Shown here piece by piece: positions 153 to 15,506 of a DNA stretch of 64,000 bases (position 1 is the stretch's first letter; each line of letters opens with the position of its first letter). The notes beneath the pieces are model-generated. The model was not told where the DNA came from, did no database searches, and saw only the letters and a list, made by a program, of their open reading frames with translations. Position numbers and translations under genes: made by a program. This DNA is from an uncultured Bacteroides sp. (GTDB lineage: Bacteria > Bacillota > Clostridia > Lachnospirales > Lachnospiraceae). Location of the stretch: assembly GCA_964405715.1 (NCBI GenBank), contig CAYOOW010000002.1, positions 23,597-87,596 on the forward strand, read 5' to 3'.

Positions 153-977
153 CTACGGTGCAATTCCGAATCCGTAGGTGTTGTCCGTCTTATACTGGTA
201 GATGTAAAAATTTTCTCCGTCATCGTTCTTTGATGACAATGTGATACAATATATATTCCGGTCGCAGATGCCAGTGATATCAATGTAAGGATATGCTGGA
301 ATGGGATAGTCGTCAATCTTTTCTGATATGGCATCTATGGTTATATTTTTGTCGCCTAATATATTGTTGATATTCTCATTCATGTAAACCTTTTTGACAG
401 GGGAAAAGGGCTTGCTGCTATCGTTTACCTGTGCTGCAAGAATGGTTCCGTTTTCGGTTATGAGTATCGTATGCTCAAGCATATTATCAAATTTTATGAA
501 ATGGACTACCCACAGATAAGTGGTGTATGTGTTGAACACAGTATCTGTGTAGCAGTACAGCTCTGTACTCCATGAATACCAGTTGCTGTATGAGGAGGAC
601 AGGGAATATGGGTATACGTTTTGTTCGTAATAATATTCCATCTGCTGCTTTGTCAGAGCTATGATTTCAGCTTCACTCAGTGTGCCTTCTCCGGGACTTA
701 CCTGAACACAGTTGCTTTCCCATACGCCGGATATCAGTTTGATACGGTCAAGAGAGGAGAGCTGTTGGGAGGCATTTTTAGCCATGGCTGTGCCTGAGGC
801 AAGGTAATAGCTTTCAGGCGCGGTCTCAACCACGGAGAGCTGTTTGTCGGTTGCTTTTCTCAATATCAGCTTAGGCAGTAGTATACCGCATGCCACAGCA
901 AGGCACGCGAGGGAAATCCCAAGGAGAAGAGAAAGTGAAAAGTTGTTTTTTGGCTGTTTACTGCTTTTATTTTTCAT
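153..977 (-). CDS. Single-pass membrane protein of unknown function, co-transcribed with the histidine kinase
   Basis: ORF 153..1091 trimmed to the ATG at 977 (MKNKSSKQPK... followed by hydrophobic helix LSLLLGISLACLAVACGILL). The start overlaps the HK stop by 11 nt. The extracytoplasmic part is Tyr/Trp/Ser-rich with no recognisable motif. Confidence 0.7.
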   Translation of the reverse strand: MKNKSSKQPKNNFSLSLLLGISLACLAVACGILLPKLILRKATDKQLSVVETAPESYYLASGTAMAKNASQQLSSLDRIKLISGVWESNCVQVSPGEGTLSEAEIIALTKQQMEYYYEQNVYPYSLSSSYSNWYSWSTELYCYTDTVFNTYTTYLWVVHFIKFDNMLEHTILITENGTILAAQVNDSSKPFSPVKKVYMNENINNILGDKNITIDAISEKIDDYPIPAYPYIDITGICDRNIYCITLSSKNDDGENFYIYQYKTDNTYGFGIAP

Positions 978-2445
978 CCTGTTTGTTCCCCTCTCTGTCA
1001 ATTTCCTGATTATTATTTTCTGCGGTTTCATCCTGTGTGCATATCGGAAAACGGATACGCATGGTGGTTCCTTTTCCCGGTTCGCTTTCAATCAAAAAAT
1101 CTGCATTGTGGCATTGGAACACCAGATTGGCAAGTGAAAGACCGAGTCCTGCGCCTCCCTCCCGACGGGAACGGGATTTGTCCACCATATAAAATTCATC
1201 GCATATGCGGGAGAGATGTTCGCTGCTGATTCCGATTCCAAAATCCTGTACCGTAAATTCGTATATGTCATCCGTGCGGATGCCTGTGAATCTGATAACC
1301 GAGTTGTACTCCGAGGCTTTCCGTGCATTGTCAATCAGATTGATAAAAGAGGATTTTAAAAGCGCGGTATCGCCCGTGAGCAGTATATTTTCAATCTGCA
1401 TGTCGAGCGAAATGTTTTTTTCTTTCAACGACGGCGTGACGCTGACTGATACAGCCTCTGCAAATTTTCCGGTCATAAACGGTTCGACGGTGATATCGTG
1501 CTGCTTGGTGTAGATAAAGTCAAATAATTTTTGCGACATGGATTCGAGACGCTTTCCTTCGCTGAATATGTAGGAAGCAGCCATAATCTGGTTTTCTCGT
1601 GTCATTTCCTTGGAACGGATTGTATCCGCATAGCCTATGATGGAGGTCATAGGTGTTTTCAGCTCATGTGTAAAGTCTGCAACAAATTGCTCCTTGCGCA
1701 CAATCATGTCCTTTAACTCGTCGACATGGTCGGAGACGGATTGCGCCATCTGATTATAGGTACGTGCAAGGGAGCCGATTTCATCCCGGGATTTTATGTC
1801 AGCGCGGGCGTCATAATTGCCCTCTCCAAAGGATTTGGAAATCTTATTCAGGGTTTCCAGCGGTCCGGTCAGCCACACGCTGATTACAAACATGCAGACG
1901 GAGCATACGAGCACGACCAGAACAAGCAGAAAACGGAAATATATGATTTGCTGTTCCATGAGGTCGTATGCACCTGTGATATCACGTCTGTTTATTATAT
2001 TGAGATTTGCATCGAAAACGGTACTGCATGAGGAGACAAAGATATATTTCTTCCCTGTGTCCTCGGTTAAGACATAATTTTTTTTGCCAATCTCGGTATT
2101 TTCCCATAATGCATCGGGATACAGGATGGAATCGTCGCTGTTGGTATATATCAGGCTGCCGTCATATACGATAAATATCGCCGATTGATTTGCCGACATG
2201 CTTGATGTGACCTCCGTACCGGTAACGGTCAGCTGGTCAATAAACTCCGATGTACGGCCGTTTATCGCATCTAACAGCTGGAATTCCACTGTGGACTGTA
2301 TCATGTTGTTTTCTTCTATCGCATTTTTTATCTGGGAATCAAGTGCCAGCTTGAAATTCTTGTCAATCATTAAAAATCCGACTGTTCCGATTCCGATGGA
2401 TAGAAGTATAATGTTGATAACGAGTACTTTGTATCTGAATTTCAT
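967..2445 (-). CDS. Sensor histidine kinase (2 TM, ~150-aa extracytoplasmic domain, HAMP, HisKA, HATPase_c)
   Basis: H-box FTHELKTPMTSIIGYADTI, N-box NLIDNARKA, G-boxes DFGIGI and GGAGLGLSLA, and a HAMP-like segment LTGPLETLNKISKSFGEGNYD. Confidence 0.95.
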   Translation of the reverse strand: MKFRYKVLVINIILLSIGIGTVGFLMIDKNFKLALDSQIKNAIEENNMIQSTVEFQLLDAINGRTSEFIDQLTVTGTEVTSSMSANQSAIFIVYDGSLIYTNSDDSILYPDALWENTEIGKKNYVLTEDTGKKYIFVSSCSTVFDANLNIINRRDITGAYDLMEQQIIYFRFLLVLVVLVCSVCMFVISVWLTGPLETLNKISKSFGEGNYDARADIKSRDEIGSLARTYNQMAQSVSDHVDELKDMIVRKEQFVADFTHELKTPMTSIIGYADTIRSKEMTRENQIMAASYIFSEGKRLESMSQKLFDFIYTKQHDITVEPFMTGKFAEAVSVSVTPSLKEKNISLDMQIENILLTGDTALLKSSFINLIDNARKASEYNSVIRFTGIRTDDIYEFTVQDFGIGISSEHLSRICDEFYMVDKSRSRREGGAGLGLSLANLVFQCHNADFLIESEPGKGTTMRIRFPICTQDETAENNNQEIDREGNKQDEK

Positions 2446-2460
2446 GAATGAAATGGCTCC

Positions 2461-3117
2461 TTATTTCCCCTCAAGCCGGTAACCGACCTTGTAGACAGTT
2501 TTGAGCTTGTGCTCGAGTCCGGCTTTTTTTCTTAGCCGCTGAATGTGCAAATCCAGCGTTCTGGTATCTCCAAAGTAGTCGCTTTCCCATATGGATTCAT
2601 AAATGCGCTCACGGAAAAGCGTGATGTTAATGTTGCGCACAAACATGACCAGCAGGTCAAATTCCTTTGGCGTCAGATCGAGAACAGTATCATTCTTTTT
2701 TGCGATTTTGTTGTCAGGATCAATGGTGATGTCCTCGTAATGCAGCATGGATGAGCTCTTGTTGTATCGTCGTAGAACAACATTGACGCGGGCGAGCAGC
2801 TCCACAATCTCAAACGGCTTTACAATGTAATCCTCGGCACCCAGTGTAAGCCCCTTTACTCTGTCGTTTAAAGCCGATTTTGCAGTCAGGAAAATGACAG
2901 GAATGTCGAGAGGTTTGATGTATTCCAACAGCTCGTAGCCGTCAATCTCAGGCAGCATGATGTCGAGCAACACCAGGTCAAAGGTGTGCGATTCAAGAAT
3001 ATTCGCGGCAGTCAGACCGTCATATGCGCAGGTACAGTCATATCCTGCATCGGACAGGTTTATTTTAATCAGGTCGGAGATTGGACGTTCATCCTCGACA
3101 ATCAGTATTTTTATCAT
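2461..3117 (-). CDS. OmpR/PhoB-family response regulator
   Basis: Receiver motifs (ILIVEDE, DLVLLDIMLPEIDG, LTAK) plus a winged-helix C-terminus (LTPKEFDLLVMF..., VYKVGYRL). It lies 15 nt upstream of the HK. Confidence 0.95.
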   Translation of the reverse strand: MIKILIVEDERPISDLIKINLSDAGYDCTCAYDGLTAANILESHTFDLVLLDIMLPEIDGYELLEYIKPLDIPVIFLTAKSALNDRVKGLTLGAEDYIVKPFEIVELLARVNVVLRRYNKSSSMLHYEDITIDPDNKIAKKNDTVLDLTPKEFDLLVMFVRNINITLFRERIYESIWESDYFGDTRTLDLHIQRLRKKAGLEHKLKTVYKVGYRLEGK

Positions 3118-3206
3118 GGTTATCCTCCCAATTTGAAAGCAGATTTACATGTTCCTTTTGTGTTCATGTACATCTGTTTGTAGTATATAATAGTTTGTCA
3201 AAAAAG

Positions 3207-3261
3207 TGTATCGAAAATGTATCAAATGTATCAAAATATGCTTGAAAGATACAAAATTGAT
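3207..3261 (+). promoter_or_regulatory. Candidate response-regulator operator: three direct TGTATC hexamers (3207, 3218, 3227) plus the inverted AGATACAAAATTGAT 15-mer (3247-3261)
   Basis: Read directly in the divergent intergenic region between the RR gene and lipoprotein gene 1. The identical 15-mer recurs upstream of lipoprotein gene 2. Confidence 0.4.
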
Positions 3262-3345
3262 GCAATTTATTTTATAATAAATATAAAAGATGTTTTTTAT
3301 ATAACACGAAAATGAAATCTATTATTATGCGAGAGGGGTAAAGAT

Positions 3346-4854
3346 ATGAGAAAAAATAAAAAAGGAAAGTGTTACAGAACCATTTTCAGCATAACACTTA
3401 TACTGTCATTTGTCATTGTCGGCTGCGGGAAGACAGACAGCAGTCAGATCGAGGCTGATATACAGGAAGTGGATGATGGCATCGGTACGTCTACGGACGC
3501 TGCCGTTGCCGATATCTCCGGTGAAATCCCGGAGCAGCTTACATATGAGATAGCAAATGCTGATGGCAGCATCTCCATTGACGTTGACGCGGAGGTGATT
3601 GTGCCGGAGGTGGAATCGTACAGTGTGTATGAGGAAAAACCGATTGCATTTGATGATGATTTTCTGAAAACACTGGCGGGAAATCTCTTCGACGGCGGTA
3701 TATATGAGCAGATAAAGCCGGCATGGATGTGCACGCAGGAGGAGTTTGCGACAGAACAGGAATATGTAAAGGCACTTACCCAACGATATGCGGGGCAGGT
3801 GGAGCTGCCGGGATATATACCGGGATGGTTACATAATCTGTATTATCATTATAATGAGATGAGCTACGATGGAAGCATGGTGGCAGAGCTTACAGAGGGA
3901 CAGCTGATTTACAGTTACATGGCATCATATGATATAGACGGAGAAACAATAACAGAGTGTTATGATAATTGTACATTGCGGGGAACTGTGGATGGTGAGG
4001 AGTGGATTCTTTACTATGAGAATTTTATTCCTAGCCCTTATCTTGATTCCGGTGTTCATGGGTCCGTTTACTCAGGGGGAACAATTTGCAGGCTGGTGAT
4101 TGCGCCTGTAAATCAAAAATATTATGGAGACTACAACATGGTACAGATGAGCAGCCCGGAAAATTATCTGGATACAACCACATATGGAGAGAATGTCAGT
4201 GATGAAACACTGTGCAGACAGATGGCATATGATTTTGTGGAAAAGCTTGGTTTGTCAGATGATATGGAGATAGTCTATGCAAATAATTATATTGTGACGG
4301 ATGAAGAGGAAGGCAGCATGCTTGACGGATACAGGATGTATCTGCTTCCTGTTATAAATGGAGTGCAGAATTATTTCAGCGACACGGGTTGTGTTGGCAC
4401 GGAAAAGGAGACGGATACAGAGGATGACGAGGAGTCGGGTTATCTGGTTGCTCTTCAGGAGTATATTGCGGTCGATGTGTCCTCTGAGGGCGTATGTGGT
4501 GTTCTTATCGGAAATCAGTATGAAATGGGAGAATGTATGACGAAGCAGGCGAATATGCTGACATTTGAACAGATTGACATGATAGCACAGGAGTATATGC
4601 AGGAGTACGTAAACGTGACTTTTAATACGGAATATTTGGTTGAAAACATAGAGCTTTCCATTGACAGAGTAGAGCTTTCCTATGCAACAATACAGTATGA
4701 GGAGGGATATTCAATCGTTCCGGTGTGGATGTATTACCTGGAATATGATAAAAAACGTATGTTTCATGAGGCGTTCTTTGGCATAAATGCATTGGATGGC
4801 AGTATTGTCACAATTATGCATATCGGAAACTATGATTATATGTTTTATCGTTAA
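3346..4854 (+). CDS. Lipoprotein of unknown function (paralog A, 502 aa)
   Basis: RBS GAGAGGGG 7 nt upstream. Signal peptide plus lipobox (LSFVIVGC-GK). It shares blocks with the next gene (IPEQLTYEI/IPEHLTYTL, CTLRG, LDGYRMYL/LDGYRFIF, GINALDGSIV/GVNALDGSIV). Confidence 0.85.
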   Translation: MRKNKKGKCYRTIFSITLILSFVIVGCGKTDSSQIEADIQEVDDGIGTSTDAAVADISGEIPEQLTYEIANADGSISIDVDAEVIVPEVESYSVYEEKPIAFDDDFLKTLAGNLFDGGIYEQIKPAWMCTQEEFATEQEYVKALTQRYAGQVELPGYIPGWLHNLYYHYNEMSYDGSMVAELTEGQLIYSYMASYDIDGETITECYDNCTLRGTVDGEEWILYYENFIPSPYLDSGVHGSVYSGGTICRLVIAPVNQKYYGDYNMVQMSSPENYLDTTTYGENVSDETLCRQMAYDFVEKLGLSDDMEIVYANNYIVTDEEEGSMLDGYRMYLLPVINGVQNYFSDTGCVGTEKETDTEDDEESGYLVALQEYIAVDVSSEGVCGVLIGNQYEMGECMTKQANMLTFEQIDMIAQEYMQEYVNVTFNTEYLVENIELSIDRVELSYATIQYEEGYSIVPVWMYYLEYDKKRMFHEAFFGINALDGSIVTIMHIGNYDYMFYR

Positions 4855-4871
4855 GGAGAATGGTATCCGGC

Positions 4872-4903
4872 AGATACAAAATTGATTTTACAATTCATGT
4901 ATC
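4872..4903 (+). promoter_or_regulatory. Second copy of AGATACAAAATTGAT (4872-4886) followed by TACAAT (4889-4894) and TGTATC (4898-4903)
   Basis: 15/15 identity with 3247-3261. It lies in the 91-nt gap before lipoprotein gene 2. Confidence 0.4.
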
Positions 4904-4945
4904 AGGTTGGAATGCGAGAGAATAATATGAAAAGGAGAGATATAA

Positions 4946-6394
4946 ATGAAGCGAAACGTTTGTTGGAATACAGGTTATAAGGTGAGAATAAACAGGCAGA
5001 ACAGGAAAAAACGAGCGGGCAGCAGGAGGGCTTTTGCAATTTTGCTGGCATGTCTGTTTTTGTTTTCCGGCTGCGGAAAAAGGGAAAAACTGGAGGAGGA
5101 CATGAGCAGGGTTGACACAGATATAAGCTCGGATTCGGATGCAGGGAAGGAGACTGTAGATATTCCCGAGCATCTGACCTATACTCTGGGCACATCGGGC
5201 TATAAATTTAATGTGGATGCAGATGTTACAGCTGCCGGTTATCAGAATGTGAAGGTCTATGAACAAAATCCCGGTACCGTGGATGATGAGTATCTTAAAA
5301 ATCTGGCTGAGCATATATTTGACGATGGGGAATATGAGGTGATAAAACCATATAATCTTTGTTCGATGGAGGAGCTACAGGAGGAAAACCAGTTTTTGCA
5401 GGAGCTGTATGAGGAGGCAGGCAAGGACGAGTATCCCTCATGGAAGATAGATGCATATATTGACAACTATAATGAAGAAAATGTGTCGGAGCTGCCGGAG
5501 GGGACATTAATATACCATTATTATGAAGAAACTTTCGAAGAGGGAACAATAGGTTTTGAAAGCTGCACACTGCGTGGGCTGGTGGACGGCAATATGGCGG
5601 AGCTGCGTTATCAGTCAACGGAGGGAGAATCCGGTACGCTTTATGTTCGCAGATATGTGTGTGATCATGTATATAAGAACTGTAATACAGAATATGAGCT
5701 TGCCTCTACCTTGTATGGAGAAAATTCATGCAATCTGGAGGAGGCTTCCCGCACAGCACAGGATATCATAGATAATATGGGATATACGGATATGAAGCAG
5801 CTTGCTGTGCAGCACAGGGTGATAAACGATGGATCTGAGGCAGAGCCGGAGACTAGCATATATTTGGACGGATACAGGTTTATTTTTGTGCGGGAGACGG
5901 ACGGAATCGAAAATATATTAGGCGAAATGCCATATGCTGTAATCATCAATGACAGCGTTGGGGAGGATATAGACGGTCTTCCGGGAGCCTGTCAGGAATT
6001 TATTTCTGTTGAAATTGATTCAACAGGAGTGGTTGGCATCACTTTTGGAATGCGATATGAAAGGGGCGAGCAGCTGTCAGACCAGCCGAGCATGCTGTCC
6101 TTTGAGCAGGTGGACGCAATCGCGCAGGACTATATGAATGATAAGTTGGAATTTTATAATCAGCATTCCGATGATTATACTTTCCAGATTGTTGCGGTAC
6201 GTCTGGGATATGTTACTCTGTTGTACGATACGCAGTACACATTGGTGCCGGTCTGGGTGTATGTGAAGGAGAATGACTTTGCAGACCAGACGCTTGACAG
6301 CATATCATTCGGCGTTAATGCACTGGATGGCAGCATCGTGTTGTTTGAATATGATAATGTATATGGAAATCCCAGTGAAAATTATTTTTATTAA
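4946..6394 (+). CDS. Lipoprotein of unknown function (paralog B, 482 aa)
   Basis: RBS AAAGGAGAG. Lipobox LFLFSGC-GK. Collinear similarity to 3346..4854. Confidence 0.85.
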   Translation: MKRNVCWNTGYKVRINRQNRKKRAGSRRAFAILLACLFLFSGCGKREKLEEDMSRVDTDISSDSDAGKETVDIPEHLTYTLGTSGYKFNVDADVTAAGYQNVKVYEQNPGTVDDEYLKNLAEHIFDDGEYEVIKPYNLCSMEELQEENQFLQELYEEAGKDEYPSWKIDAYIDNYNEENVSELPEGTLIYHYYEETFEEGTIGFESCTLRGLVDGNMAELRYQSTEGESGTLYVRRYVCDHVYKNCNTEYELASTLYGENSCNLEEASRTAQDIIDNMGYTDMKQLAVQHRVINDGSEAEPETSIYLDGYRFIFVRETDGIENILGEMPYAVIINDSVGEDIDGLPGACQEFISVEIDSTGVVGITFGMRYERGEQLSDQPSMLSFEQVDAIAQDYMNDKLEFYNQHSDDYTFQIVAVRLGYVTLLYDTQYTLVPVWVYVKENDFADQTLDSISFGVNALDGSIVLFEYDNVYGNPSENYFY

Positions 6395-6451
6395 TAAATT
6401 TGAATGCGTTTAGATATAAGCCGACGGATAGAGAGACATGGAGGAAAAACT

Positions 6452-7456
6452 ATGGGAAGAAAGAAATTGATACCGCTTTTGGCGACAGCAGCACTTCTTT
6501 TCACCGGTTGCGGAAATGGGGAGAAAATACATGAGGCAAAGGTGAACGTCCCGGAGTACGAAAAAATAATATATGATTCAGTTGAAGCCTGCCGTGGGGA
6601 TATCACACCGGTTCTTACGCTTAAACTGTCAGCGGTAAGCTATGAGAAGAAATCCTATTATCCTCTCTATGATGATATGGAGGTGGAAAGTGTAAATGTG
6701 GCTGTCGGTGATAAGGTAAAGAAGGGTGATGTTCTGATTACCTTTAAGTCGGGTGATATCGCTTCACAGATAAAGGAATATCAGAATCAGGTAGAACAGA
6801 ATAATCTTCTGATTGACCATTATACACGGCTGTCCCAGCTGGATGCATCGGTGGATTACAGCGCTGATCTGGCACGGCTTGGGGAGGACACGAAGGTTGC
6901 CAATCTGTATATACAGGAGCTTCAGGCAAAATTATCCTTCTACAGCATATGTGCGGAGGATGACGGAAGCGTATATATACTATCAGATTTACTTGATTAC
7001 GGGACGGTCGGTACATCAAATAATCTTATCACGCTGATATATGGAAACGGACAGTTCGAGGCGGAGACGACGGATGATTTTGATTTTCAGGTGGGTGAGA
7101 CATATATCGCCACATACGGAGTTGCCGAATATGAGTTGGAATTAATCTCTGTTGAGGAGAAGGGGGAGGATGTAAACGGAGAGACAGTCAGGACACTTCG
7201 ATTTCAGGCCGCGGCTGAAAATACGGATTTCAGCAACAGGGACAAGCTTACAATGACATTGGAAAAGCCGACGCTCACGGATGTCGTTTATGTACCCAAG
7301 GAATGTGTCTTTGATGTTGATGATGAGTACTATGTGTATTTGCTGGATGATGATGGTTTCAGAGATGCCGTCAGGGTGACGATAGGGAGCACCGTGGACG
7401 GATATACCGTGATTGAGTCAGGTTTAAACGAAGGAGACAGGGTGGTGATTCAGTGA
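6452..7456 (+). CDS. Membrane-fusion-protein (HlyD/MacA-like) lipoprotein, single module
   Basis: ORF 6404.. trimmed to the ATG at 6452 (RBS GGAGGAAAA). Lipobox LLFTGC-GN. Half-lipoyl motifs (VAVGDKVKKGDVLITF ... DDGSVYILSD) flank a helical segment. C-terminus FRDAVRVTIGSTVDGYTVIESGLNEGDRVV. Confidence 0.8.
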   Translation: MGRKKLIPLLATAALLFTGCGNGEKIHEAKVNVPEYEKIIYDSVEACRGDITPVLTLKLSAVSYEKKSYYPLYDDMEVESVNVAVGDKVKKGDVLITFKSGDIASQIKEYQNQVEQNNLLIDHYTRLSQLDASVDYSADLARLGEDTKVANLYIQELQAKLSFYSICAEDDGSVYILSDLLDYGTVGTSNNLITLIYGNGQFEAETTDDFDFQVGETYIATYGVAEYELELISVEEKGEDVNGETVRTLRFQAAAENTDFSNRDKLTMTLEKPTLTDVVYVPKECVFDVDDEYYVYLLDDDGFRDAVRVTIGSTVDGYTVIESGLNEGDRVVIQ

Positions 7457-9780
7457 TGAGAATGATAAAATATAAGAGAGGGCTGGCTTGTCTGGTTATG
7501 CTTGCCTTTGGGCTTGCGGGATGTGGGAAGAAGACGGTGGAGGTTCCGGAGCTGCTTGCGCCTTCTGCCGGCAATGAGTCATACAGACCGGTAGAGTATG
7601 GCGATGTGGGCGCAATCGATGTTGCGTATGGTACAGTTGTTCCTACTGAGTACTGTCATTTCTGGCTGACGCAGGTCACAATCAGAGAAATTCCGGTGGA
7701 TATCGGGGATTATGTGCAGGCGGGAGATGTTCTGGCGTATGCCGATATTGATGTCGCCCGTGAGACCATTGAGCAGCTTAATGCACAGCTTACACTTGAA
7801 AATTCAATATTTTCGGTTGATGAGGAGATATATCAGTTTAAGCATCAGGAGCTGGAATTGAAAAAGGCGGGTATGCAGGCGATTGCAGACGGAGCAGCCG
7901 AGGCACAGGCTGCTACGGACATTGCCGTGCTGGAGGAAAATCACAGATATGACACGCTGTTGCATCAGTACAGAGTAAAAGAGCTGAACGAAAGTATTGC
8001 AGAGCAGCAGGAGATTGTGACCGACGGAACCCTGGTTGCGCGAATATCAGGCTATGTGACATATGCCAAGGATATATCCTCAGGCGGTGCGGTAACCAAT
8101 GCAGAAAATGTTGTGATTGTGTCTGACTATGAGGATTGTTATGTCGAGATGACAGGCATTACTGTTTCGGAGGATTTCCAGAGAAAATGGATGCCGTATG
8201 ACAGATATTATACAGAGATAGCGGGAAAAAAATATGATTTGAAGGAATATGAATATGCGCCGAATGAGCTTGTTGTGATAGAGGATAAGGCGCTGTACCC
8301 GGATATGCGTATGCAGTTTGAGGATAAGAGCGCACTGCCCGAAGCGGGGACTAATATTCCTGTATTTATGACGGGAGATATCGTAGAGGATGTACTTGTA
8401 GTCGGAAATGATTCTCTGTATCAGGATTCACAGGGAGATTTCGTCTATGTGAAAAAGGATGACAGCAAGGAGCTGCGTTATGTCGAGCTTGGAAAATCAG
8501 GAGACAATTATACGGAGGTGATATCGGGGCTATCAGAGGGGGATATGGTGTATTACTCATCGGGCGCCATTTTGCCGGAGCAATATACGGAATTTGAAAT
8601 GCAGCCTTCCGATTATGAACCGAAGCGGACTTCCAACACATACAGTATTGAGAATACAAAGAACAAGATATACTATTCGGAGTATGAGGGACGGATTACA
8701 AGCCTCAATGTCGGTGAGGGGGATGCGGTAAGCGCGGGCGACCTCGTTTGTACGATTCAGACAAACGAGGGAAGTGCGAGATTGACGGAGCTTTCCAATG
8801 CAATCAATGATTTAAAACAGAGCTACCAGAATTCTGAGAAAGGATATACGGAACAGATACAGGCGATTGAGAATCAGATGGCGGCGCTTCTGGCACCACA
8901 GCCAACACCAGAACCGCAGCCAACACCAGAACCGCAGCCGGAGGAGACGGCTACCGGTACGGATGCGGTACCGGAGGAGCCCGGCACATCGGAGGAGCCC
9001 GGCACATCGGAGGAGCCCGGCACGTCGGAGGAGCCGCCGCAGGATCCGAATCTGTATCAGGAGCTTGCCTTGCAGATAGAGCAGATTAAGGCGGAGGAGA
9101 AGAAAAATACCTTGAACTATAATTATCAGCTTGGATGTCAGGAGGCTGAATATCAAAAGGCAAGCAAAAATAATAACGGAAGCGGCACGATAAATATATA
9201 TGCCGAGACAGCGGGTACGGTGACAGGCATCAACATCAATGAGGGGAAAAATGTGAAGGCGGGGGACCGCATGTTCAATATAGGCGTCGATGCTTCCAAC
9301 AAGGTGCAGTTCCGGAGCTCTGATGCTATTCATCTGAATCAGACATTGGTATTTTGTGTGGAGGATTCGGATAAGACCTACACCGGGAAGGTTTCCGGAA
9401 TAACAGGCGACAGTGCGAGGATATATGTCACTACCGTGGATGATAAGGTTTACTTGACCAACAACCTCTCGGACAGCAATATAAAAAGATATTATATCAG
9501 GATGGATGATGAAGCATTCTATGCTTCAGAGGATAAGTGTACGATAGAATATTCAATCAATTCTATAAAAAATACGTTCGTTCTGCCTGACGGGGTTGTC
9601 CATTCGGAGAAAGATGAAAAGGGGGAGAAGACATATTATTATGTGTGGAGGATTGTGGATGGCAATCTGGTAAAGCAATATGTCACAATAGCAATAGATG
9701 AATACAACGGTATGAAAAATGAGTGTGCAATCAATGGTCTTAAAGCCGGAGATATTCTTGCTCAGGATGAAAGTAAGTAG
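7456..9780 (+). CDS. Tandem (double) MFP/HlyD-like lipoprotein with a Pro/Glu-rich repeat insert
   Basis: The start ATG overlaps the previous stop (GTGATG); GTG at 7453 is also possible. Lipobox LAFGLAGC-GK. There are two successive sets of lipoyl-half / coiled-coil / lipoyl-half / beta-rich / ...GL-x-xGD-x-V motifs. Confidence 0.8.
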   Translation: MRMIKYKRGLACLVMLAFGLAGCGKKTVEVPELLAPSAGNESYRPVEYGDVGAIDVAYGTVVPTEYCHFWLTQVTIREIPVDIGDYVQAGDVLAYADIDVARETIEQLNAQLTLENSIFSVDEEIYQFKHQELELKKAGMQAIADGAAEAQAATDIAVLEENHRYDTLLHQYRVKELNESIAEQQEIVTDGTLVARISGYVTYAKDISSGGAVTNAENVVIVSDYEDCYVEMTGITVSEDFQRKWMPYDRYYTEIAGKKYDLKEYEYAPNELVVIEDKALYPDMRMQFEDKSALPEAGTNIPVFMTGDIVEDVLVVGNDSLYQDSQGDFVYVKKDDSKELRYVELGKSGDNYTEVISGLSEGDMVYYSSGAILPEQYTEFEMQPSDYEPKRTSNTYSIENTKNKIYYSEYEGRITSLNVGEGDAVSAGDLVCTIQTNEGSARLTELSNAINDLKQSYQNSEKGYTEQIQAIENQMAALLAPQPTPEPQPTPEPQPEETATGTDAVPEEPGTSEEPGTSEEPGTSEEPPQDPNLYQELALQIEQIKAEEKKNTLNYNYQLGCQEAEYQKASKNNNGSGTINIYAETAGTVTGININEGKNVKAGDRMFNIGVDASNKVQFRSSDAIHLNQTLVFCVEDSDKTYTGKVSGITGDSARIYVTTVDDKVYLTNNLSDSNIKRYYIRMDDEAFYASEDKCTIEYSINSIKNTFVLPDGVVHSEKDEKGEKTYYYVWRIVDGNLVKQYVTIAIDEYNGMKNECAINGLKAGDILAQDESK
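8896..9036 (+). repeat. In-frame tandem repeats: 18-nt unit CC(A/G)CAGCCAACACCAGAA x2+ (PQPTPE) and 18-nt unit GAGGAGCCCGGCAC(A/G)TCG x3+ (EEPGTS)
   Basis: Read directly. Near-perfect DNA-level repeats lie inside CDS 7456..9780. Confidence 0.9.
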
Positions 9781-9789
9781 GTGAAAAGG

Positions 9790-12591
9790 ATGCTTAAATT
9801 TATTAGAGAAAAAATAAAAAACAAATTATGGCTTACTGTTTGTCTGATGCTCGGACTTGTATTCCTTATTGCAGCTTTCTGCTGTCAGCCGATGTTTAAG
9901 GAGGGCTCTTTAAATAAGCTGTTAAACCGGACGTTTAATCAGTACATTGAGGACAACAACCGCTATCCGGCAATGATTGGGCGGAGCGGCTCCTATCAGA
10001 CAAAGAGTACGCCGTCTGTGTCGTTAATTTGTGACAAGATAAATGAATATCAGGCAATCTGGAGTAAATATCTCACGGATATTGATGTGTTAAACTGCCA
10101 GACAAGACTGAAGCTTACGGAGGAAACCAGTCAGGGCAGCTACGGCAGCAAGGGCAATTATCTGTCTGTAAGCCATATGCCGGATATGCTTTCTCATATT
10201 CAGATATTAAAGGGAACAGACTATGAGAGCTACAGTGGCTCGGATTATTATCCATGTATTATTTCTGAGAGCGTGATGGATCAGTGCGGGCTGATTGTGG
10301 GAGAAACAATAGATTTTGTACAGTGGAAGGATGACAGCGGAAATACGCTCAAGCTGGTAGTTGCCGGTATATTCAGGGAGCAGGACAGCACAGATTTATT
10401 CTGGTATACGGCTCCGAATGATTTCGAGAAGGAAATCTTTGTAAACGAAGCCGATTTTGATGAGATACTTGAAAAATTTGACGTGGGCACAGTGTATTAT
10501 GATCATGTTACGCTGCTCGATTACGGGGATATTCGGAACAGTAATGTGGATGATATTCTGTACTGTCTGGGGCAGTTTCAGGAGTTGGACAATAATTTTG
10601 TCGATACAATGCAGGACATGCTGAAAGATTTTGCGTCTGAGAGAAAATCGGTAAATGTAATGCTGTGGGTACTTGAATTGCCGATTCTGGGTATGGTGCT
10701 TGCATTTATCTACATGGTATCAGGACAGATTATCGAGACGGAGCGGAATGAGATAGCGATGCTGAAAAGCCGTGGTTTCAGCCGTGTCCAGGTGATTATA
10801 CTATATGCGGTTCAGTCAGGTGTTTTGGCAGTGGGAGGCATCCTTTTCGGCGTACCGCTTGGATATGGTTTATGTAAGCTTTCTGCCGAGACAACGGATT
10901 TCCTGACCTTTTCGGGTACGGATTCCAGCCTGTACAGGTTTGTGCCGATTATGCTGGTATATGGAGTGGTTGCGGCGCTGATTGGAATTGTTTTTATATT
11001 GATTCCGGTCGTTCGCTACTCCAATGTTTCCATTGTGGAGCACAAATCCGGTTATGTGGGAAACAAAAAGATGTTTTGGGAGAAATATTTTTTGGATATT
11101 CTGCTGCTGGGACTGTCTCTTTATCTATTGTACAATTTTAATCAGTCCATAGATAATCTTCGGGTGAAAGCGCTGGAGGGAAGCAAAATGGATCCTATGA
11201 TTTTTATGGATACGATTTTATTCATACTTGCTTTCGGACTGCTGACCTTGAGATTGATGCATTATCTGGTGAAGCTGGTTTATGCAATCGGTAAGAAAAA
11301 ATGGAAACCGGCGGCATATGTGTCGTTTTTGCAGATAACCAGAACCTTCAGCAGACAGGGATTTATTTCGGTGTTTATGATTTTAACCGTGTCCATGGGA
11401 CTCTTTAATGCCAATGCGGCAAGAACCATCAATCGGAATAACGAGGATCGTATTGTATATGAATGTGGAGCTGACGTAGTGCTACAGGAAAAATGGCAGG
11501 CAAAGCCATACCGCGATAGCAACTATAAGGTACGGTATACCTATATCGAGCCTGATTATGTGAAGTATACGCAACTTGTCTCCGAGGGATTATGTGACAG
11601 CGTGGCGCGAGTGATTCACTATGAACGGACGGAGGCAAGCGCCGGCGGTAAGAGCGTGACGGATTGCACGGTTATGGGAATTAATACCAAGGATTTCGGA
11701 GAGACGGCTTATCTGAAGGAGGAGCTGTATGGTGATGTTCACTGGTTTAATTGGCTGAATGCCATGGGACAGCGGGAGAACGGAGCGGTCATTTCACGCA
11801 ATCTCGCGGAGGCACTCGGGATAGAAGAGGGGAATGTGGTAAGCTTTAACGGGCTGACCAGTGGTGAGGTTGATACGGAACAGATCATGCGGTGCTATGT
11901 CTGTGCCATTGTGGATGCATGGCCGGGCTATGACCAGTATTATTATGAGGATGGGGAACAGAAAGAACGCTATCTGATTGTGGCAAATTATGCGGCGATG
12001 ACTAAAAATCTGGAAACAATTCCGTATGAGATATGGTGCAGGCTGAGTGAGGGCGTCACGGCTGACACCTTGTATGAAAAGCTGAAGGAGAGGGATATTA
12101 CGATAGAAAGCTATCAGAGTGTTCAGGATAACATCTACGATATGAAAAATTCACCTGATATCCAGATTACCAACGGTATGTTCACATTGGGATTTATCAT
12201 AGCGCTGGTTCTCTGTGGTGTGGGATTTCTGATATACTGGATATCCTCCATAAGACAGCGGGAGCTTTTGTTCGGTGTGTATCGTGCCATGGGTATGTCT
12301 GTCGCAAATGTCAATCATATGCTGGTAAACGAGCATATTTTCAGTACACTGCTGTCGGTGATAGCGGGCGGACTTGTCGGTATGGCGGCTACGTTCCTGT
12401 ACACCAAGCTGTTTGGAGTCGTGTATCTGCCGGAGAAACATAATCTGGATATTTACATTTATTTTGAGACCGGTGATATTGTGAAGCTGTTTGCGGTGAT
12501 TGCGGCAATGATAGTGATATGTATGCTGATTCTTCGCAGACTGATACGGTCCTTGAACATTACGCAGGCATTGAAGCTGGGGGAGGAATAA
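9790..12591 (+). CDS. Fused double-FtsX (MacB-type / type VII) ABC transporter permease, ~930 aa
   Basis: RBS AGGTGA 6 nt before the ATG at 9790 (GTG 9781 is an alternative). N-terminal TM, large extracytoplasmic domain, a 4-TM FtsX-like block (...AMLKSRGFSRVQVI...), further TMs, a second large extracytoplasmic domain, and a C-terminal FtsX block (...GVYRAMGMSVANV...). Confidence 0.9.
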   Translation: MLKFIREKIKNKLWLTVCLMLGLVFLIAAFCCQPMFKEGSLNKLLNRTFNQYIEDNNRYPAMIGRSGSYQTKSTPSVSLICDKINEYQAIWSKYLTDIDVLNCQTRLKLTEETSQGSYGSKGNYLSVSHMPDMLSHIQILKGTDYESYSGSDYYPCIISESVMDQCGLIVGETIDFVQWKDDSGNTLKLVVAGIFREQDSTDLFWYTAPNDFEKEIFVNEADFDEILEKFDVGTVYYDHVTLLDYGDIRNSNVDDILYCLGQFQELDNNFVDTMQDMLKDFASERKSVNVMLWVLELPILGMVLAFIYMVSGQIIETERNEIAMLKSRGFSRVQVIILYAVQSGVLAVGGILFGVPLGYGLCKLSAETTDFLTFSGTDSSLYRFVPIMLVYGVVAALIGIVFILIPVVRYSNVSIVEHKSGYVGNKKMFWEKYFLDILLLGLSLYLLYNFNQSIDNLRVKALEGSKMDPMIFMDTILFILAFGLLTLRLMHYLVKLVYAIGKKKWKPAAYVSFLQITRTFSRQGFISVFMILTVSMGLFNANAARTINRNNEDRIVYECGADVVLQEKWQAKPYRDSNYKVRYTYIEPDYVKYTQLVSEGLCDSVARVIHYERTEASAGGKSVTDCTVMGINTKDFGETAYLKEELYGDVHWFNWLNAMGQRENGAVISRNLAEALGIEEGNVVSFNGLTSGEVDTEQIMRCYVCAIVDAWPGYDQYYYEDGEQKERYLIVANYAAMTKNLETIPYEIWCRLSEGVTADTLYEKLKERDITIESYQSVQDNIYDMKNSPDIQITNGMFTLGFIIALVLCGVGFLIYWISSIRQRELLFGVYRAMGMSVANVNHMLVNEHIFSTLLSVIAGGLVGMAATFLYTKLFGVVYLPEKHNLDIYIYFETGDIVKLFAVIAAMIVICMLILRRLIRSLNITQALKLGEE

Positions 12592-12592
12592 C

Positions 12593-13279
12593 ATGGAAGA
12601 TATCATGATTGCAGAAAATATAGTAAAATGTTTTAAAACCGGTGGAGAGGATTTTTATGCTTTGAAGGGTATCAATATGGAGGTAAGCCGGGGCAGGCTT
12701 ACTATCCTGAAAGGGCGCTCCGGTTCGGGCAAGACGACGCTTCTGAATGCGTTGAGTACTCTGGATGAACCTACCTCAGGTGAGGTTTATTTTGACGGGC
12801 GTGCATACAGCGAACTGACAGATAAGGATAAGGAGAAAATCAGAAGACAGGAAATTGGTTTTATCTTCCAGTCGTTTGCGCTGATTCCGATTATGAATGC
12901 ATATGAAAATGTTGATTTTGCGCTCCGGATGACGGGAAATATAGAGGACAGTGATGCGCATATCAGGGAGGTGCTTGCTCTGGTCGGTATGAAAGATCGA
13001 ATGCTGCACATGCCGATGCAGATGTCCGGTGGAGAACAGCAGAGGGTTGCCATTGCCAGGGCTGTCGTACACAGACCGAAGGTAATATTTGCAGATGAGC
13101 CGACAGGTGCCCTGGATACGGAGACAGGTATACGTGTCATGGCGCTGTTCCGGAAGCTGGTGGAGAAGGAGGGGATTACGATTGTGATGACGACGCATGA
13201 TCCGAACCTGATGGAGCTGGGCGATATCATATATGAGATGAAGGATGGTGAGTTGGTTGACAGACGTGAAAATAACTGA
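12593..13279 (+). CDS. ABC transporter ATP-binding protein (NBD 1)
   Basis: Walker A GRSGSGKTT, Q-loop FQSFALIP, signature MSGGEQQRVAIARA, Walker B IFADEPTGALD, H-loop TTHD. RBS GGGGGAGG. Confidence 0.95.
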   Translation: MEDIMIAENIVKCFKTGGEDFYALKGINMEVSRGRLTILKGRSGSGKTTLLNALSTLDEPTSGEVYFDGRAYSELTDKDKEKIRRQEIGFIFQSFALIPIMNAYENVDFALRMTGNIEDSDAHIREVLALVGMKDRMLHMPMQMSGGEQQRVAIARAVVHRPKVIFADEPTGALDTETGIRVMALFRKLVEKEGITIVMTTHDPNLMELGDIIYEMKDGELVDRRENN

Positions 13280-13283
13280 TGAT

Positions 13284-14264
13284 ATGTTGGAACAGGAGAT
13301 ACCGGATGAACAGCCGGAGCCTGAGACGGATATGGAGGGAGAGGAAGAGGATGCAGACCTGATTGAATGTGACGGTCTTGTCAAGATATATAAGACGAAG
13401 GAAATTGAGGTTATGGCGCTTCAGGGGCTTGACCTCACCATCAAACGCGGAGAACTGATGTCCGTCATCGGAAAGAGCGGAAGCGGAAAAAGTACGCTTA
13501 TGAATATTGTGGGAGGATTGGAAAAACCGTCCGCCGGAAGGATTGTCGTAGCCGGAAAAAATCTGTCAGAGCTCTCGGAGAAGGAAATGGTGGAATACCG
13601 CAAGAACATAATCGGCTTTGTGTGGCAGCAGAGCGGGCGAAATTTATTTCCGTATTTGAATTCCGTGGAAAATATAGAGGCAACCATGAATTTCAGCGGA
13701 ATGAAAGCGAAGGAGAAGCGTAACCGCGCGCTGGAGCTGCTTGAGATGGTCGGAATGAGTCATAAGAAGGATTCTTATCCAAACCAGATGTCCGGTGGAG
13801 AACAGCAGAGGGTTGCAATCGCCGTTGCGCTGGCAAACAATCCGCAGATACTGCTTGCCGATGAGCCTACGGGTGCGGTGGATACAAAAACCTCCAGCAT
13901 GATACAGGATTTGTTCCGCAAGCTGAATCTTGAGCTCGGTATCACAATCATTATAGTAACGCATGATATAAATCTTGCAAATAAGGTCGACCGTGTGGTC
14001 ATGATTTCGGATGGTAAAATCAGTACGGAAAAGATTATGAAGGAAAAATATCGTGCACAGATAGACCAGCTTTCCTCTTCCGATCTGCATGTCGATTCTC
14101 ATGAGGAATATTCAGTTATGGATAAGGCGCATCGTGTACAATTAAGTGCAGATATACTTGATGCTGCCGGAATTGATTCCAATAAGGTGCGCATATCCGT
14201 GGAGGATGGAAGGGTTGTCATAGTCGGTGGAAACAGCACAAATTCTTCCGAAAATAAAGGATAA
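13284..14264 (+). CDS. ABC transporter ATP-binding protein (NBD 2) with an acidic N-terminal tail and ~85-aa C-terminal extension
   Basis: Walker A GKSGSGKST, signature MSGGEQQRVAIAVA, Walker B LLADEPTGAVD, H-loop VTHD. The start is uncertain (ATG 13245, 13284 or 13332). Confidence 0.9.
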   Translation: MLEQEIPDEQPEPETDMEGEEEDADLIECDGLVKIYKTKEIEVMALQGLDLTIKRGELMSVIGKSGSGKSTLMNIVGGLEKPSAGRIVVAGKNLSELSEKEMVEYRKNIIGFVWQQSGRNLFPYLNSVENIEATMNFSGMKAKEKRNRALELLEMVGMSHKKDSYPNQMSGGEQQRVAIAVALANNPQILLADEPTGAVDTKTSSMIQDLFRKLNLELGITIIIVTHDINLANKVDRVVMISDGKISTEKIMKEKYRAQIDQLSSSDLHVDSHEEYSVMDKAHRVQLSADILDAAGIDSNKVRISVEDGRVVIVGGNSTNSSENKG

Positions 14265-14294
14265 ATTACAGTATTGCCGCAACAGATTAAATAT

Positions 14295-14480
14295 ATGGGG
14301 CTGTCTTATTCAGATGATATGATATGGTTATATGTATGATGCGGGAAAACCGTTTGCGAACGCCGGTACTTAGCGAGGTACTTTCGAGCTTAGTACCGCT
14401 GCGTGAGCGACCGAGCGAAAGCGGGTTTTCCTGCATCATACATATAACCATATCATGTCATCTGAATGGGGCAGCCCCAT
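14295..14480. repeat. 186-nt near-perfect palindrome (about 65-nt arms, inner secondary hairpin), non-coding; REP/MITE-like element
   Basis: The left arm ATGGGGCTGTCTTATTCAGATGATATGATATGGTTATATGTATGATGCGGGAAAACC... is the reverse complement of the right arm ...GGTTTTCCTGCATCATACATATAACCATATCATGTCATCTGAATGGGGCAGCCCCAT, with few mismatches. A T6 run lies at 14491-14496. Confidence 0.9.
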
Positions 14481-14517
14481 AATTATACCCTTTTTTGTGA
14501 AATAACAATGAACTCTA

Positions 14518-14545
14518 TTGACTTGTTTTGGCTTCATGTTAAAAT
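14518..14545 (+). promoter_or_regulatory. Sigma-A-type promoter candidate for the marR operon: -35 TTGACT, 16-nt spacer, extended -10 TGtTAAAAT
   Basis: Read directly; about 50 nt upstream of the MarR start. Confidence 0.45.
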
Positions 14546-14599
14546 AAATATTCATCGTGAGTAGTTTTATTTTAAACAAAAGAAAGCAGGGTGAACAGA

Positions 14600-15046
14600 A
14601 TGTCTGATATGGATGCTGTCATACAGAATAACATGCATCGATATAAACGGCTGAATGAGCGGAAAATTGAAAAGGTTATGCGTGAATATAATTTAAGAAA
14701 GATTGACCTGGAAATCATGATTTATCTGAAAGACTGTGGAGGAAAGAATACAGCGAAGGATATAGCCGCTACGGAGATGTTTACAAAGGGACATATATCC
14801 CAGTCTGTAAGTCGTATGCGGGATTTCGGATATATTGAGGTGAAGCAGGATGAAAAGGATCTTCGCCTGCAGCATTTGAAGCTTACGGAGGGCGCTAAAA
14901 GGATACTTGAAGATGTTATGTCTGTTAAACAGGAAGTGGAGGAATGTGTGTTTTCCGGTATAACGGAGGATGAGATATGTTTGCTGCAAAGGGTTTTACA
15001 GAAAATTAACAGCAATATATCTGCTGCCCTGGAAAAAAATTATTGA
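14600..15046 (+). CDS. MarR-family transcriptional regulator
   Basis: Winged-helix pattern (KNTAKDIAATEMFTKGHISQSVSRMRDFGYIEVKQDEKDLRLQHLKLT). ATG 14600, with GTG 14591 as an alternative. Confidence 0.85.
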   Translation: MSDMDAVIQNNMHRYKRLNERKIEKVMREYNLRKIDLEIMIYLKDCGGKNTAKDIAATEMFTKGHISQSVSRMRDFGYIEVKQDEKDLRLQHLKLTEGAKRILEDVMSVKQEVEECVFSGITEDEICLLQRVLQKINSNISAALEKNY

Positions 15047-15105
15047 TACAGGAAAAATATTTGATTGGATGGCTATAATATGTCAGCAGGATACGGAGGT
15101 ATGGT

Positions 15106-15501
15106 ATGAGACAGAAAATGATGGCTTTTATGCGCGGAAGATACGGGCTTGACCGGTTTTCAAACTTTTTGGTGATTGCTGCCTGTGTAATAATATTTAT
15201 AAATATCTTTTTTAAAAGTAATCTTGTCAGTTTATTTGCATTGGCGGTGTTTGTTTATGCCTACAGCAGGATTTTTTCAAGAAATATATCCAAAAGAAGT
15301 GCAGAAAATTCATGGTATCTGAATAAGACCTATGGTATCAGACGCTTTTTCCTGAGAGAGAAGGACAGGGCGAAAATCAGACGCACGCATCACATTTACA
15401 GATGTCCGAAATGCGGTCAGAAAATGAAGGTTCCGAAGGGCAGGGGCAGGATTGAAGTAACCTGTCCGAAATGCAGATATGAATTTGTAAAAAGGAGTTA
15501 A
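15106..15501 (+). CDS. Small 2-TM membrane protein with a C-terminal zinc ribbon
   Basis: Hydrophobic helices (FLVIAACVIIFINIFF, LVSLFALAVFVYAY), then CPKCGQ...18 aa...CPKCRY. RBS GGAGG. Confidence 0.75.
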   Translation: MRQKMMAFMRGRYGLDRFSNFLVIAACVIIFINIFFKSNLVSLFALAVFVYAYSRIFSRNISKRSAENSWYLNKTYGIRRFFLREKDRAKIRRTHHIYRCPKCGQKMKVPKGRGRIEVTCPKCRYEFVKRS

Positions 15502-15506
15502 GAGAG

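Follow-up and report, generated by a model that had tools for sequence, protein, structure and literature searches.

What kind of machine is encoded by two divergent gene strings of a Lachnospiraceae-type genome, and do the two belong together? The genes lie at positions 153-14264 of the window, by which we mean the whole 64-kb stretch of DNA that was analysed (64,000 nt), and were read by open reading frame (ORF) listing combined with Pfam and NCBIfam profile searches. Their core consists of five genes, encoding two adaptors (MFP1 and MFP2), a 936-aa fused FtsX permease and two ATPases (ATP1 and ATP2) of an ATP-binding cassette (ABC) transporter belonging to type VII. Two DUF6034 lipoproteins (LpA and LpB) and an operon for a response regulator, a histidine kinase and the memX protein are accessory to this core, and the neighbouring two-component sensor probably switches on both the pump and the lipoprotein family through a shared promoter box recognised by sequence comparison. 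As to function, we see about an even chance that this monoderm Lachnospiraceae bacterium uses a type VII ABC transporter as the base of an inducible extrusion machine for envelope defence. All ten genes claimed in a first-pass annotation, which was made from the sequence alone, are present; their coordinates, sizes and domains agree, and each domain assignment is backed by Pfam and NCBIfam. The features are as follows.

88-135, no strand: palindrome between the end of the upstream plus-strand gene and the end of memX; 24-nt arms, 92% complementary.
153-977, minus strand: memX, 274 aa, one N-terminal transmembrane (TM) helix, about 230 aa outside the cell.
967-2445, minus strand: sensor histidine kinase; TM helix 7-25, 145-aa extracytoplasmic domain, TM helix 172-190, HAMP, HisKA, HATPase_c.
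2461-3117, minus strand: response regulator of the OmpR/PhoB family; Response_reg receiver and winged-helix Trans_reg_C.
3207-3232, plus strand: Box A, TGTATC-GAAAA-TGTATC-AAA-TGTATC, oriented towards the minus-strand operon.
3248-3264, minus strand: Box B, GATACA-AAATT-GATGCA when read towards LpA.
3346-4854, plus strand: LpA, 502-aa DUF6034 lipoprotein, lipobox IVGC.
4946-6394, plus strand: LpB, 482-aa paralogous lipoprotein of DUF6034 type, lipobox FSGC.
6404-7456, plus strand: MFP1, single-module YknX/MacA-like adaptor lipoprotein; likely start 6452 (MGRKK...), giving 334 aa; lipobox FTGC.
7453-9780, plus strand: MFP2, 775-aa tandem adaptor lipoprotein with lipobox; start overlaps the MFP1 stop by 4 nt.
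9781-12591, plus strand: permease, 936 aa, 10 TM helices, fused type VII permease with YbbP-like topology.
12593-13279, plus strand: ATP1, ABC ATPase of orthogroup 1 (GRSGSGKT, GALD, TTHD).
13245-14264, plus strand: ATP2, ABC ATPase of orthogroup 2 (GKSGSGKS, GFVWQ, GAVD, VTHD); start overlaps the ATP1 end by 35 nt.
14281-14500, plus strand: long hairpin with 71-nt arms and T-run, probable operon terminator.

The minus-strand operon (response regulator, histidine kinase, memX) diverges from the plus-strand genes at 3346-14264, and gene junctions range from a 35-nt overlap to a 91-nt gap. From MFP1 to ATP2, the genes overlap by 4 nt at the first junction and by 35 nt at the last, and are 0 nt and 1 nt apart at the second and third; this close packing suggests coupled translation.

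For the permease, hydropathy, Pfam and an AlphaFold2 model together give 10 TM helices, two FtsX units and two extracytoplasmic domains (ECDs), which bears out the fused pseudo-dimer proposed in the first-pass annotation. By hydropathy, the ECDs span residues 35-292 (258 aa) and 547-799 (253 aa); Pfam FtsX matches twice (E 2.3e-19), and the second ECD has a weak match to MacB_PCD (E 0.0033, under the Pfam cut-off), a family for which precomputed matches exist in many relatives. The model, built from 44 relatives (pLDDT 82, pTM 0.72), has as its top match in the PDB the E. coli protein YbbP, over its whole length (E 8.5e-20, ∼975 aligned columns), with a sequence identity of only ∼12%. The next PDB matches are BceB, LolE/LolC, MacB, Spr0695, YtrF, HrtB and the YknZ ECD, and isolated periplasmic-domain structures of LolE, LolC, MacB and YknZ also match the whole-permease model. 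The two halves of the permease fail to align by BLAST; profile comparison relates them with 83% probability (E 8.6e-6, 335 columns). Since YbbP is the top match of the model and the halves are homologous at the profile level, the permease as modelled is a YbbP-type fused pseudo-dimer, in which two 4-TM units are joined by two linker helices. This topology has already been described for YbbP-type permeases (PMC5985334, PMC12646458). Searches of PDB sequences with the permease, with MFP2 and with the ATP2 tail gave marginal matches or none.

The two ATPases are distinct proteins. ATP1 and ATP2 are 39% identical, and each holds a Walker A motif, Q-loop, SGGEQQR signature, Walker B motif (DEPT), D-loop and H-loop, in keeping with the earlier description of two non-identical ATPases with complete consensus motifs. 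They belong to separate orthologous groups with their own motif variants; among the related loci, which we cite by number, both orthogroups are kept in every one scored (L001-L015), and the catalytic motifs that could be scored in these loci, including the Paenibacillus locus described below, are intact in both proteins. The top NCBIfam matches are LolD, FtsE, MacB, YbbA and DevA. Against PDB sequences, ATP2 matches MJ0796, LolD, Spr0694, YtrE, YbbA and MacB at E 1e-46 to 1e-59, and the unrelated ATPases Rv1281c and DppD score somewhat above the type VII ATPases in this search. The N-terminal tail of ATP2 is acidic, and at its C-terminus the protein carries a conserved extension of ∼80 aa. By eye the extension had been taken for an AbrB/SpoVT-like domain; this assignment was dropped, as only weak, non-significant BON, HSP20 and SymE matches were obtained. 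The placement of the system in type VII (the MacB/FtsX superfamily) is supported by the FtsX units, the large ECDs and the MJ0796/LolD/MacB-type ATPases. No type VII system with two different ATPases was described in the literature searched, which was a limited search.

Three adaptor modules are encoded by two genes. MFP1, the N-terminal half of MFP2 (residues 1-386; 7453-8610) and its C-terminal half (residues 387-775; 8611-9780) scarcely align by BLAST, but profile-profile comparison of alignments drawn from 14 loci finds them mutually homologous over nearly their full length, with probabilities of 99.4%, 98.1% and 98.8%. This full-length homology implies that MFP2 consists of two complete modules and that the locus holds three highly divergent ones, as had been claimed, so that an adaptor of a single species (the homo-hexamer type) is not the case here. 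The likeness to MFP adaptors suggested earlier for the 335- and 775-aa proteins (MFP1 and MFP2) is likewise upheld: HlyD_D23, HlyD_3 and Biotin_lipoyl_2 exceed their Pfam cut-offs in MFP2, the RND_mfp matches to the adaptors (E 2e-20 and 3e-24) fall under the NCBIfam cut-off, and adaptor orthologues match the YknX-specific Pfam families YknX_C and RND-MFP_C. All of the adaptors are anchored by a lipid at the lipobox rather than by a TM helix. Tandem adaptors of this kind (700-860 aa) are common, with at least 177 distinct clusters at 50% identity (E ≤ 1e-30). The C-terminal module varies in length among MFP2 orthologues from 332 to 391 aa. In the window it carries a Pro/Glu-rich, low-complexity insert (MFP2 residues 481-530; 8893-9042; PQPTPEPQPTPEPQPEE...EEPGTSEEPGTSEEPGTSEEP), which divides the lipoyl halves of this module at the place where the tip of the helical hairpin would be expected. 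The first-pass annotation regarded three modules as half a hexamer, an attractive idea that may be right.

Are these genes a conserved unit? One scan of a genome collection returned 11 loci in Lachnospiraceae-type genomes, and further look-ups added more distant relatives. The five-gene core occurs in all 17 related loci examined, with permease identities of 44-82% and the order MFP1-MFP2-permease-ATP1-ATP2 kept wherever the contig reaches, so the expected conservation of the gene string in related genomes was found. The relatives include Coprococcus hominis and a Wujia species (permease 82% identical). The extracytoplasmic parts diverge fastest: identities are 25-55% for the lipoproteins and 31-71% for MFP2, against 62-85% for the ATPases. 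The flanking genes vary among genomes and are of housekeeping type.

The genes for the two-component system (TCS), memX and DUF6034 lipoproteins are linked to the core in two layouts. In the first (the window and L019), the accessory genes are divergent and upstream of the core; in the second (C. hominis), they are co-directional and downstream of ATP2, with two unrelated genes separating memX from the lipoprotein pair. A DUF6034 relative follows the core with no TCS nearby in L012 and L018, and L013 and L021 have the five-gene core alone, so the TCS and lipoproteins, which had been presented as fixed parts of the composition, are not fixed. If these core-only genomes are taken at face value, the TCS, lipoprotein and ABC genes of the window might be separate units that happen to lie side by side. 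Their linkage, however, survives the rearrangement from one layout to the other, and the promoter evidence given below bears on the same question.

A more distant relative lies on a megaplasmid of Paenibacillus cellulosilyticus (L015; NZ_CP054609, 237491-258388), the only match found for plasmid carriage. Its locus, for which the existing annotation is merely generic, encodes an ATP1-type ATPase, a single adaptor, a 971-aa fused permease, an ATP2-type ATPase and an SBP_bac_1 lipoprotein; the ATPases are 49% (ATP1 type) and 50% (ATP2 type) identical to those of the window, and the permease is 23.5% identical over the full length. This composition indicates that the fused permease and the two distinct ATPases are not confined to Lachnospiraceae. 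To date, only Lachnospiraceae-type loci have shown the tripling of adaptors and DUF6034 partners. A solute-binding protein beside a type VII ABC system is unusual, and L015 is flanked by IS1182 and IS110 transposases.

Several individual loci have additional genes next to the core. A Wzx/Polysacc_synt-type flippase gene immediately precedes the lipoprotein or MFP1 genes in L001 (2161-3774), L002 (5120-6646) and L009 (4898-6421); it is 60-65% identical among the three, is flanked by two box copies in L002, and is absent from the window. An approximately 325-aa lipoprotein with no Pfam match follows ATP2 in L002 (14479-15453) and L020 (14599-15576), the two having similar N-termini, and L007 has a gene of the metallo-beta-lactamase fold in the position after ATP2. 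In L021 the core has a box upstream and no OmpR-type TCS nearby, and is directly followed at 14480-17864 by an agr-like quorum-sensing set, with genes for a LytTR regulator, for a kinase, for AgrB and for a peptide of 49 aa.

The accessory genes and the core are also linked by a shared promoter element. OmpR/PhoB-family regulators bind head-to-tail direct repeats that replace the -35 element. The regulator encoded here has the corresponding make-up (receiver and winged helix, with a HisKA kinase as partner), and comparison of the loci revealed a candidate direct-repeat operator. The only exact copy of TGTATC-N5-TGTATC in the window is that of Box A (3207-3223), with the third TGTATC just beyond it; it lies 90 bp upstream of the response regulator start and is a putative autoregulation site. 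Box B, on the other strand, is a 1-mismatch site (TGCATC-N5-TGTATC, 3248-3264) that ends 8 nt upstream of a TATAAT hexamer (3273-3278), and this spacing implies that, in the promoter from which the LpA-to-ATP2 operon is read, it covers approximately positions -38 to -22; an identical site is present in the Wujia relative L011. Allowing one mismatch, the window holds four box matches, compared with 0.38 expected, and four are reached in one of 100 shuffles. The exact match and one 1-mismatch site lie inside the 228-bp divergent region, and the two other 1-mismatch sites lie elsewhere in the window.

Besides the window, the box is found in L001-L008, L010, L011, L016-L018, L020 and L021. As a repeat with an 11-bp period, mostly free of mismatches, it occurs directly upstream of MFP1 (L002, L003-L006, L008, L010 and L021), directly upstream of DUF6034 genes (L003, L005-L008, L010, L011, L016, L018 and L020), upstream of a DUF6034 gene that is unlinked to any core (L017), and next to the response regulator gene (L001 and L002). 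Read towards the regulated gene, it has the form GATACA-N5-GATACA followed by an 8-9-nt spacer and a -10-like hexamer, so that it covers about -38 to -22; the distance to the -10 element is constant at 8-9 nt in both pump and lipoprotein promoters. L012 and L013, neither of which has a TCS nearby, show no box at their core promoters. We infer from this pattern that the regulator would activate its own operon, the lipoprotein genes and the pump. The claimed tie of the gene string to the TCS and the lipoproteins thus has two supports, the shared box and a linkage kept in two layouts. In genomes that have diverged from one another, the same box stands before pump and lipoprotein genes, at a fixed distance from the -10 element, and also beside the response regulator gene; coincidental adjacency is thereby effectively ruled out, and we assign it a negligible probability.

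LpA and LpB are 33.5% identical over 495 columns, each with a lipobox. LpA matches the Pfam family DUF6034 (PF19499) with 103.1 bits against a cut-off of 27, while LpB by itself has no DUF6034 match in Pfam; matches to the family occur in relatives at L008, L012, L018, L019 and L020. The two proteins are therefore paralogous lipoproteins, as first described, but they are not orphans. A word-based search found 22 DUF6034 relatives, and the number of copies per locus varies from 0 to 4. The predicted fold of LpA is multi-domain alpha/beta (model pLDDT 76), and the sole significant Foldseek match of the model is 5COZ, an uncharacterised protein of Eubacterium rectale. Searches of the PDB with LpA, as a single sequence and as a profile, gave marginal matches or none, and nothing useful was found in the literature on DUF6034, EUBREC_2869 or 5COZ. 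The invariant residues of the family are mainly Gly, Tyr, Trp and Pro, with no evident catalytic set, a pattern that would fit a binding role better than an enzymatic one. The DUF6034 lipoproteins are probably co-regulated partners of the core that vary in copy number.

One might go further and regard these lipoproteins as the object of the machine, which would then be a mechanotransmission device in the manner of Lol or FtsEX: the ABC complex would extract, release or activate DUF6034 lipoproteins and would pump no small molecule. Type VII systems are typically defined by their partner protein (PMC12646458), at L012 and L018 DUF6034 genes come after the core although no TCS lies nearby, and LolE and LolC are strong single-unit structural matches of the permease model (TM-scores of 0.60-0.65, normalised to the target). 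The three adaptor modules, however, point to a conduit of MacAB/YknXYZ type, which Lol and FtsEX systems lack; furthermore, the copy number falls to 0 at some loci, core-only loci exist (L013 and L021), and there is at least one copy, in L017, with no core linked to it. We consider such a device quite unlikely.

On the sensory side, the histidine kinase has a 145-aa extracytoplasmic segment between two TM helices, for which Pfam gives no match. The memX start codon (ATG) overlaps the kinase stop by 11 nt, indicating translational coupling to the kinase, and memX lies directly after the kinase gene in L002, L003, L005, L006, L008, L010 and L019. It represents an orphan family of 27 relatives with no Pfam match; a relationship to DUF6034 was considered, and comparison shows none. 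We take memX to be an accessory of the sensor.

For the extrusion machine favoured here, the parts could act together as follows. The kinase, helped by memX, would sense an extracytoplasmic signal, and the phosphorylated OmpR/PhoB-type regulator would bind the direct repeat and turn on the pump and lipoprotein genes along with its own operon. A heterodimer of ATP1 and ATP2 would place one ATPase on each coupling helix of the fused permease, and ATP binding may move both ECDs by mechanotransmission, by analogy with MacB, LolCDE and YbbP. An amphipathic agent would thereby be pushed out of the outer leaflet of the membrane or the space between wall and membrane; candidates are antimicrobial peptides or bacteriocins, bile-type detergents and lipid-linked compounds. 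The agent would exit through a funnel of MFP1 and MFP2, in which two MFP1-MFP2 pairs probably supply six modules. The DUF6034 lipoproteins, which evolve fast and vary in copy number, may serve as surface partners for binding and hand-over, a role like that of LanI immunity lipoproteins or of the partner proteins that set the function in other type VII systems.

A number of points weigh against this extrusion machine. No member has a known substrate, inducer or phenotype, and the conserved neighbours do not include genes for a bacteriocin or other biosynthesis, so the nature of the expelled agent is a guess. DUF6034 has no functional annotation, and its sole structural relative is the uncharacterised 5COZ. 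L019 has the full layout and yet no box at up to one mismatch, and since L013 and L021 have neither TCS nor DUF6034 genes nearby, these are not obligatory parts. Moreover, the flippase gene inside the regulon in three loci, and the solute-binding lipoprotein that takes the lipoprotein slot in Paenibacillus, fit the handling of an envelope polymer or lipid equally well.

The last two points lead to a different function, that of an envelope-building exporter, which would move a self-made lipid-linked, glycolipid or polysaccharide component or remodel the wall, with the TCS tuning envelope composition to conditions. DevBCA, which exports the heterocyst glycolipid, provides the model for such a role. 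Its support comes from the flippase genes of L001, L002 and L009, each of which has the box on one side and lipoprotein or MFP1 genes on the other, from the solute-binding lipoprotein in the partner slot of the Paenibacillus locus, and from the nearest fold relative, YbbP, which takes hydrophobic compounds from the membrane (PMC12646458). Yet the flippase occurs in only three loci and is missing from the window, and the surroundings of the core lack conserved genes for glycosyltransferases or lipid synthesis. On balance this role appears unlikely.

In its most specific form, the extrusion machine would be an obligate and fully symmetry-broken assembly. A single fused permease would work with one ATP1-ATP2 heterodimer and with a ring of six modules, supplied by two MFP1-MFP2 pairs; the three module types would fill the non-equivalent adaptor positions of a six-fold ring on a two-fold transporter, three per permease half, and DUF6034 proteins would act as interchangeable docking modules for specificity. 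We regard this as rather doubtful. If true, it would be the first natural MacAB-like machine with a 6:2 symmetry mismatch hard-wired into separate genes, in a bacterium without an outer membrane.

The surroundings of the locus were also interpreted at first as those of an accessory cassette bracketed by copies of one palindromic repeat. The claim of one repeat fails, and the cassette is not supported. The two sites are different hairpins (24-nt and 71-nt arms): a 27-nt arm segment of the second, searched against the 64-kb window at up to three mismatches, finds nothing outside its own two arms (a direct alignment of one palindrome to the other was not made). Nor does anything point to a mobile cassette; no transposase or integrase ORF stands next to the locus, and no mobility genes are adjacent to the core in relatives. 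The 88-135 palindrome sits between convergent genes and looks like a bidirectional terminator. After the very stable hairpin at 14281-14494, with arms of 71 nt (-132 kcal/mol, z = -17.7), comes a T-run, and a hairpin of the same size occupies the same place after ATP2 in the Wujia relative (L011, 11769-11986), where its sequence is strongly diverged with the arms still complementary; the adjacent downstream promoter is nearly identical. A search of the window against Rfam gave no match at all, and the long hairpin had no match in a plasmid collection. Both palindromes look like terminators, not like copies bracketing a cassette. The long hairpin could be more than a terminator. Downstream, at 14591-17214, are genes for a winged-helix regulator of the MarR type, a small membrane protein with a zinc ribbon, a DUF5685 protein and a protein with a DnaJ domain; they are syntenic in the Wujia relative and not in other pump carriers, and so are probably unrelated to the pump.

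The family bears on open questions of the efflux field, namely why adaptors exist without an outer membrane and why some pumps break symmetry (PMC4338810). It is a natural system in which two ATP sites, two permease halves and three adaptor positions are separately mutable, and the predicted regulon box provides a handle for an inducer search as well as the first functional context for DUF6034. With the box, separate subunits and a cultured carrier (C. hominis) in hand, the system is experimentally tractable. It is common in gut Lachnospiraceae, some permease clusters containing thousands of metagenome sequences, and this abundance suggests that the pump may help commensals to withstand bacteriocins, host peptides or bile.

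How does the system compare with those already described? The first-pass annotation held that its composition could not be mapped to any of them. This is correct for the full combination, which was not found in the literature searched, but parts of it have precedents in YbbP, DSY0927, TriABC and HssRS-HrtAB, and the annotation overstated how unprecedented the single features are.

The closest structural counterpart is E. coli YbbAP-TesA (PDB 9GE6/9GE7; PMC12646458), which shares the single fused 10-TM permease, the two extracytoplasmic domains, the two linker helices, the separate ATPase subunits on two coupling helices and a function defined by a partner protein. The two differ in that YbbP is served by two copies of one ATPase (YbbA), whereas two distinct ATPase genes are present here; YbbAP has no adaptor, compared with three adaptor modules; and its partner is the hydrolase TesA rather than DUF6034 lipoproteins. 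No TesA-like gene was found in this locus by ORF listing and Pfam.

Among pumps of monoderms, B. subtilis YknWXYZ and S. pneumoniae Spr0693-0694-0695 likewise join an ABC transporter of type VII to a HlyD/MacA-type adaptor, and have been linked to peptide and antibiotic resistance (PMC5768738, PMC4338810). They have one TM-anchored, homo-hexameric adaptor, one ATPase and a homodimeric 4-TM permease, in contrast to the lipoprotein adaptors in three versions, the fused permease and the two ATPases found here; a YknW-like gene is present in YknWXYZ and not in this locus. The Paenibacillus locus L015 differs from that of the window in having one adaptor module instead of three, SBP_bac_1 in place of DUF6034, another gene order and no TCS.

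HssRS-HrtAB is a dedicated OmpR-family TCS beside an ABC transporter of type VII, with induction via promoter direct repeats and a kinase, HssS, that has an extracytoplasmic sensor domain. The adjoining TCS and the sensor-domain kinase are as in the window, but HrtB is a 4-TM homodimer without adaptors. Both HssRS-HrtAB and Bce-type modules are detoxification systems of Firmicutes in which a dedicated TCS is coupled to the type VII pump. In Bce-type modules (PMC5985334), BceB has one ECD and BceS lacks a sensor domain, whereas here there are two ECDs and a 145-aa sensor segment. The earlier rejection of the Bce class stands, given two ECDs, a kinase sensor segment and three adaptor modules compared with one ECD (TM7-TM8), no sensor and no adaptor; Bce-type and LanFEG-type membership are both ruled out on topology and domains. 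Co-regulated lipoproteins and a memX-like gene are absent from HssRS-HrtAB and from Bce-type modules alike. Structures of MacAB-TolC include a lipoprotein partner, YbjP, which was considered and set aside, because it is a partner of TolC and irrelevant to a monoderm.

For the adaptors, DSY0927 of Desulfitobacterium hafniense, also a member of the Clostridia, is a two-in-one adaptor with an ABC transporter; it is a natural fusion of two different membrane fusion proteins, which the authors took as evidence that adaptors act in pairs (PMC4338810, PMC4446572). Since this fusion is already in reviews, tandem adaptor fusion as such is not new. DSY0927, which we liken to MFP2 by description, is a genome observation only; its halves differ in type (one is without a coiled coil), and a third adaptor, a fused permease and a double ATPase were not reported for it. 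In TriABC-OpmH of P. aeruginosa, the symmetry of the adaptor ring is similarly broken by paralogous adaptors, both of which are required (PMC4338810). That pump is a resistance-nodulation-division (RND) system of a diderm, with an outer-membrane channel and two adaptor types, compared with three here. Some of the parts are familiar, and the full combination, not described in the literature searched, is widespread in gut Clostridia.

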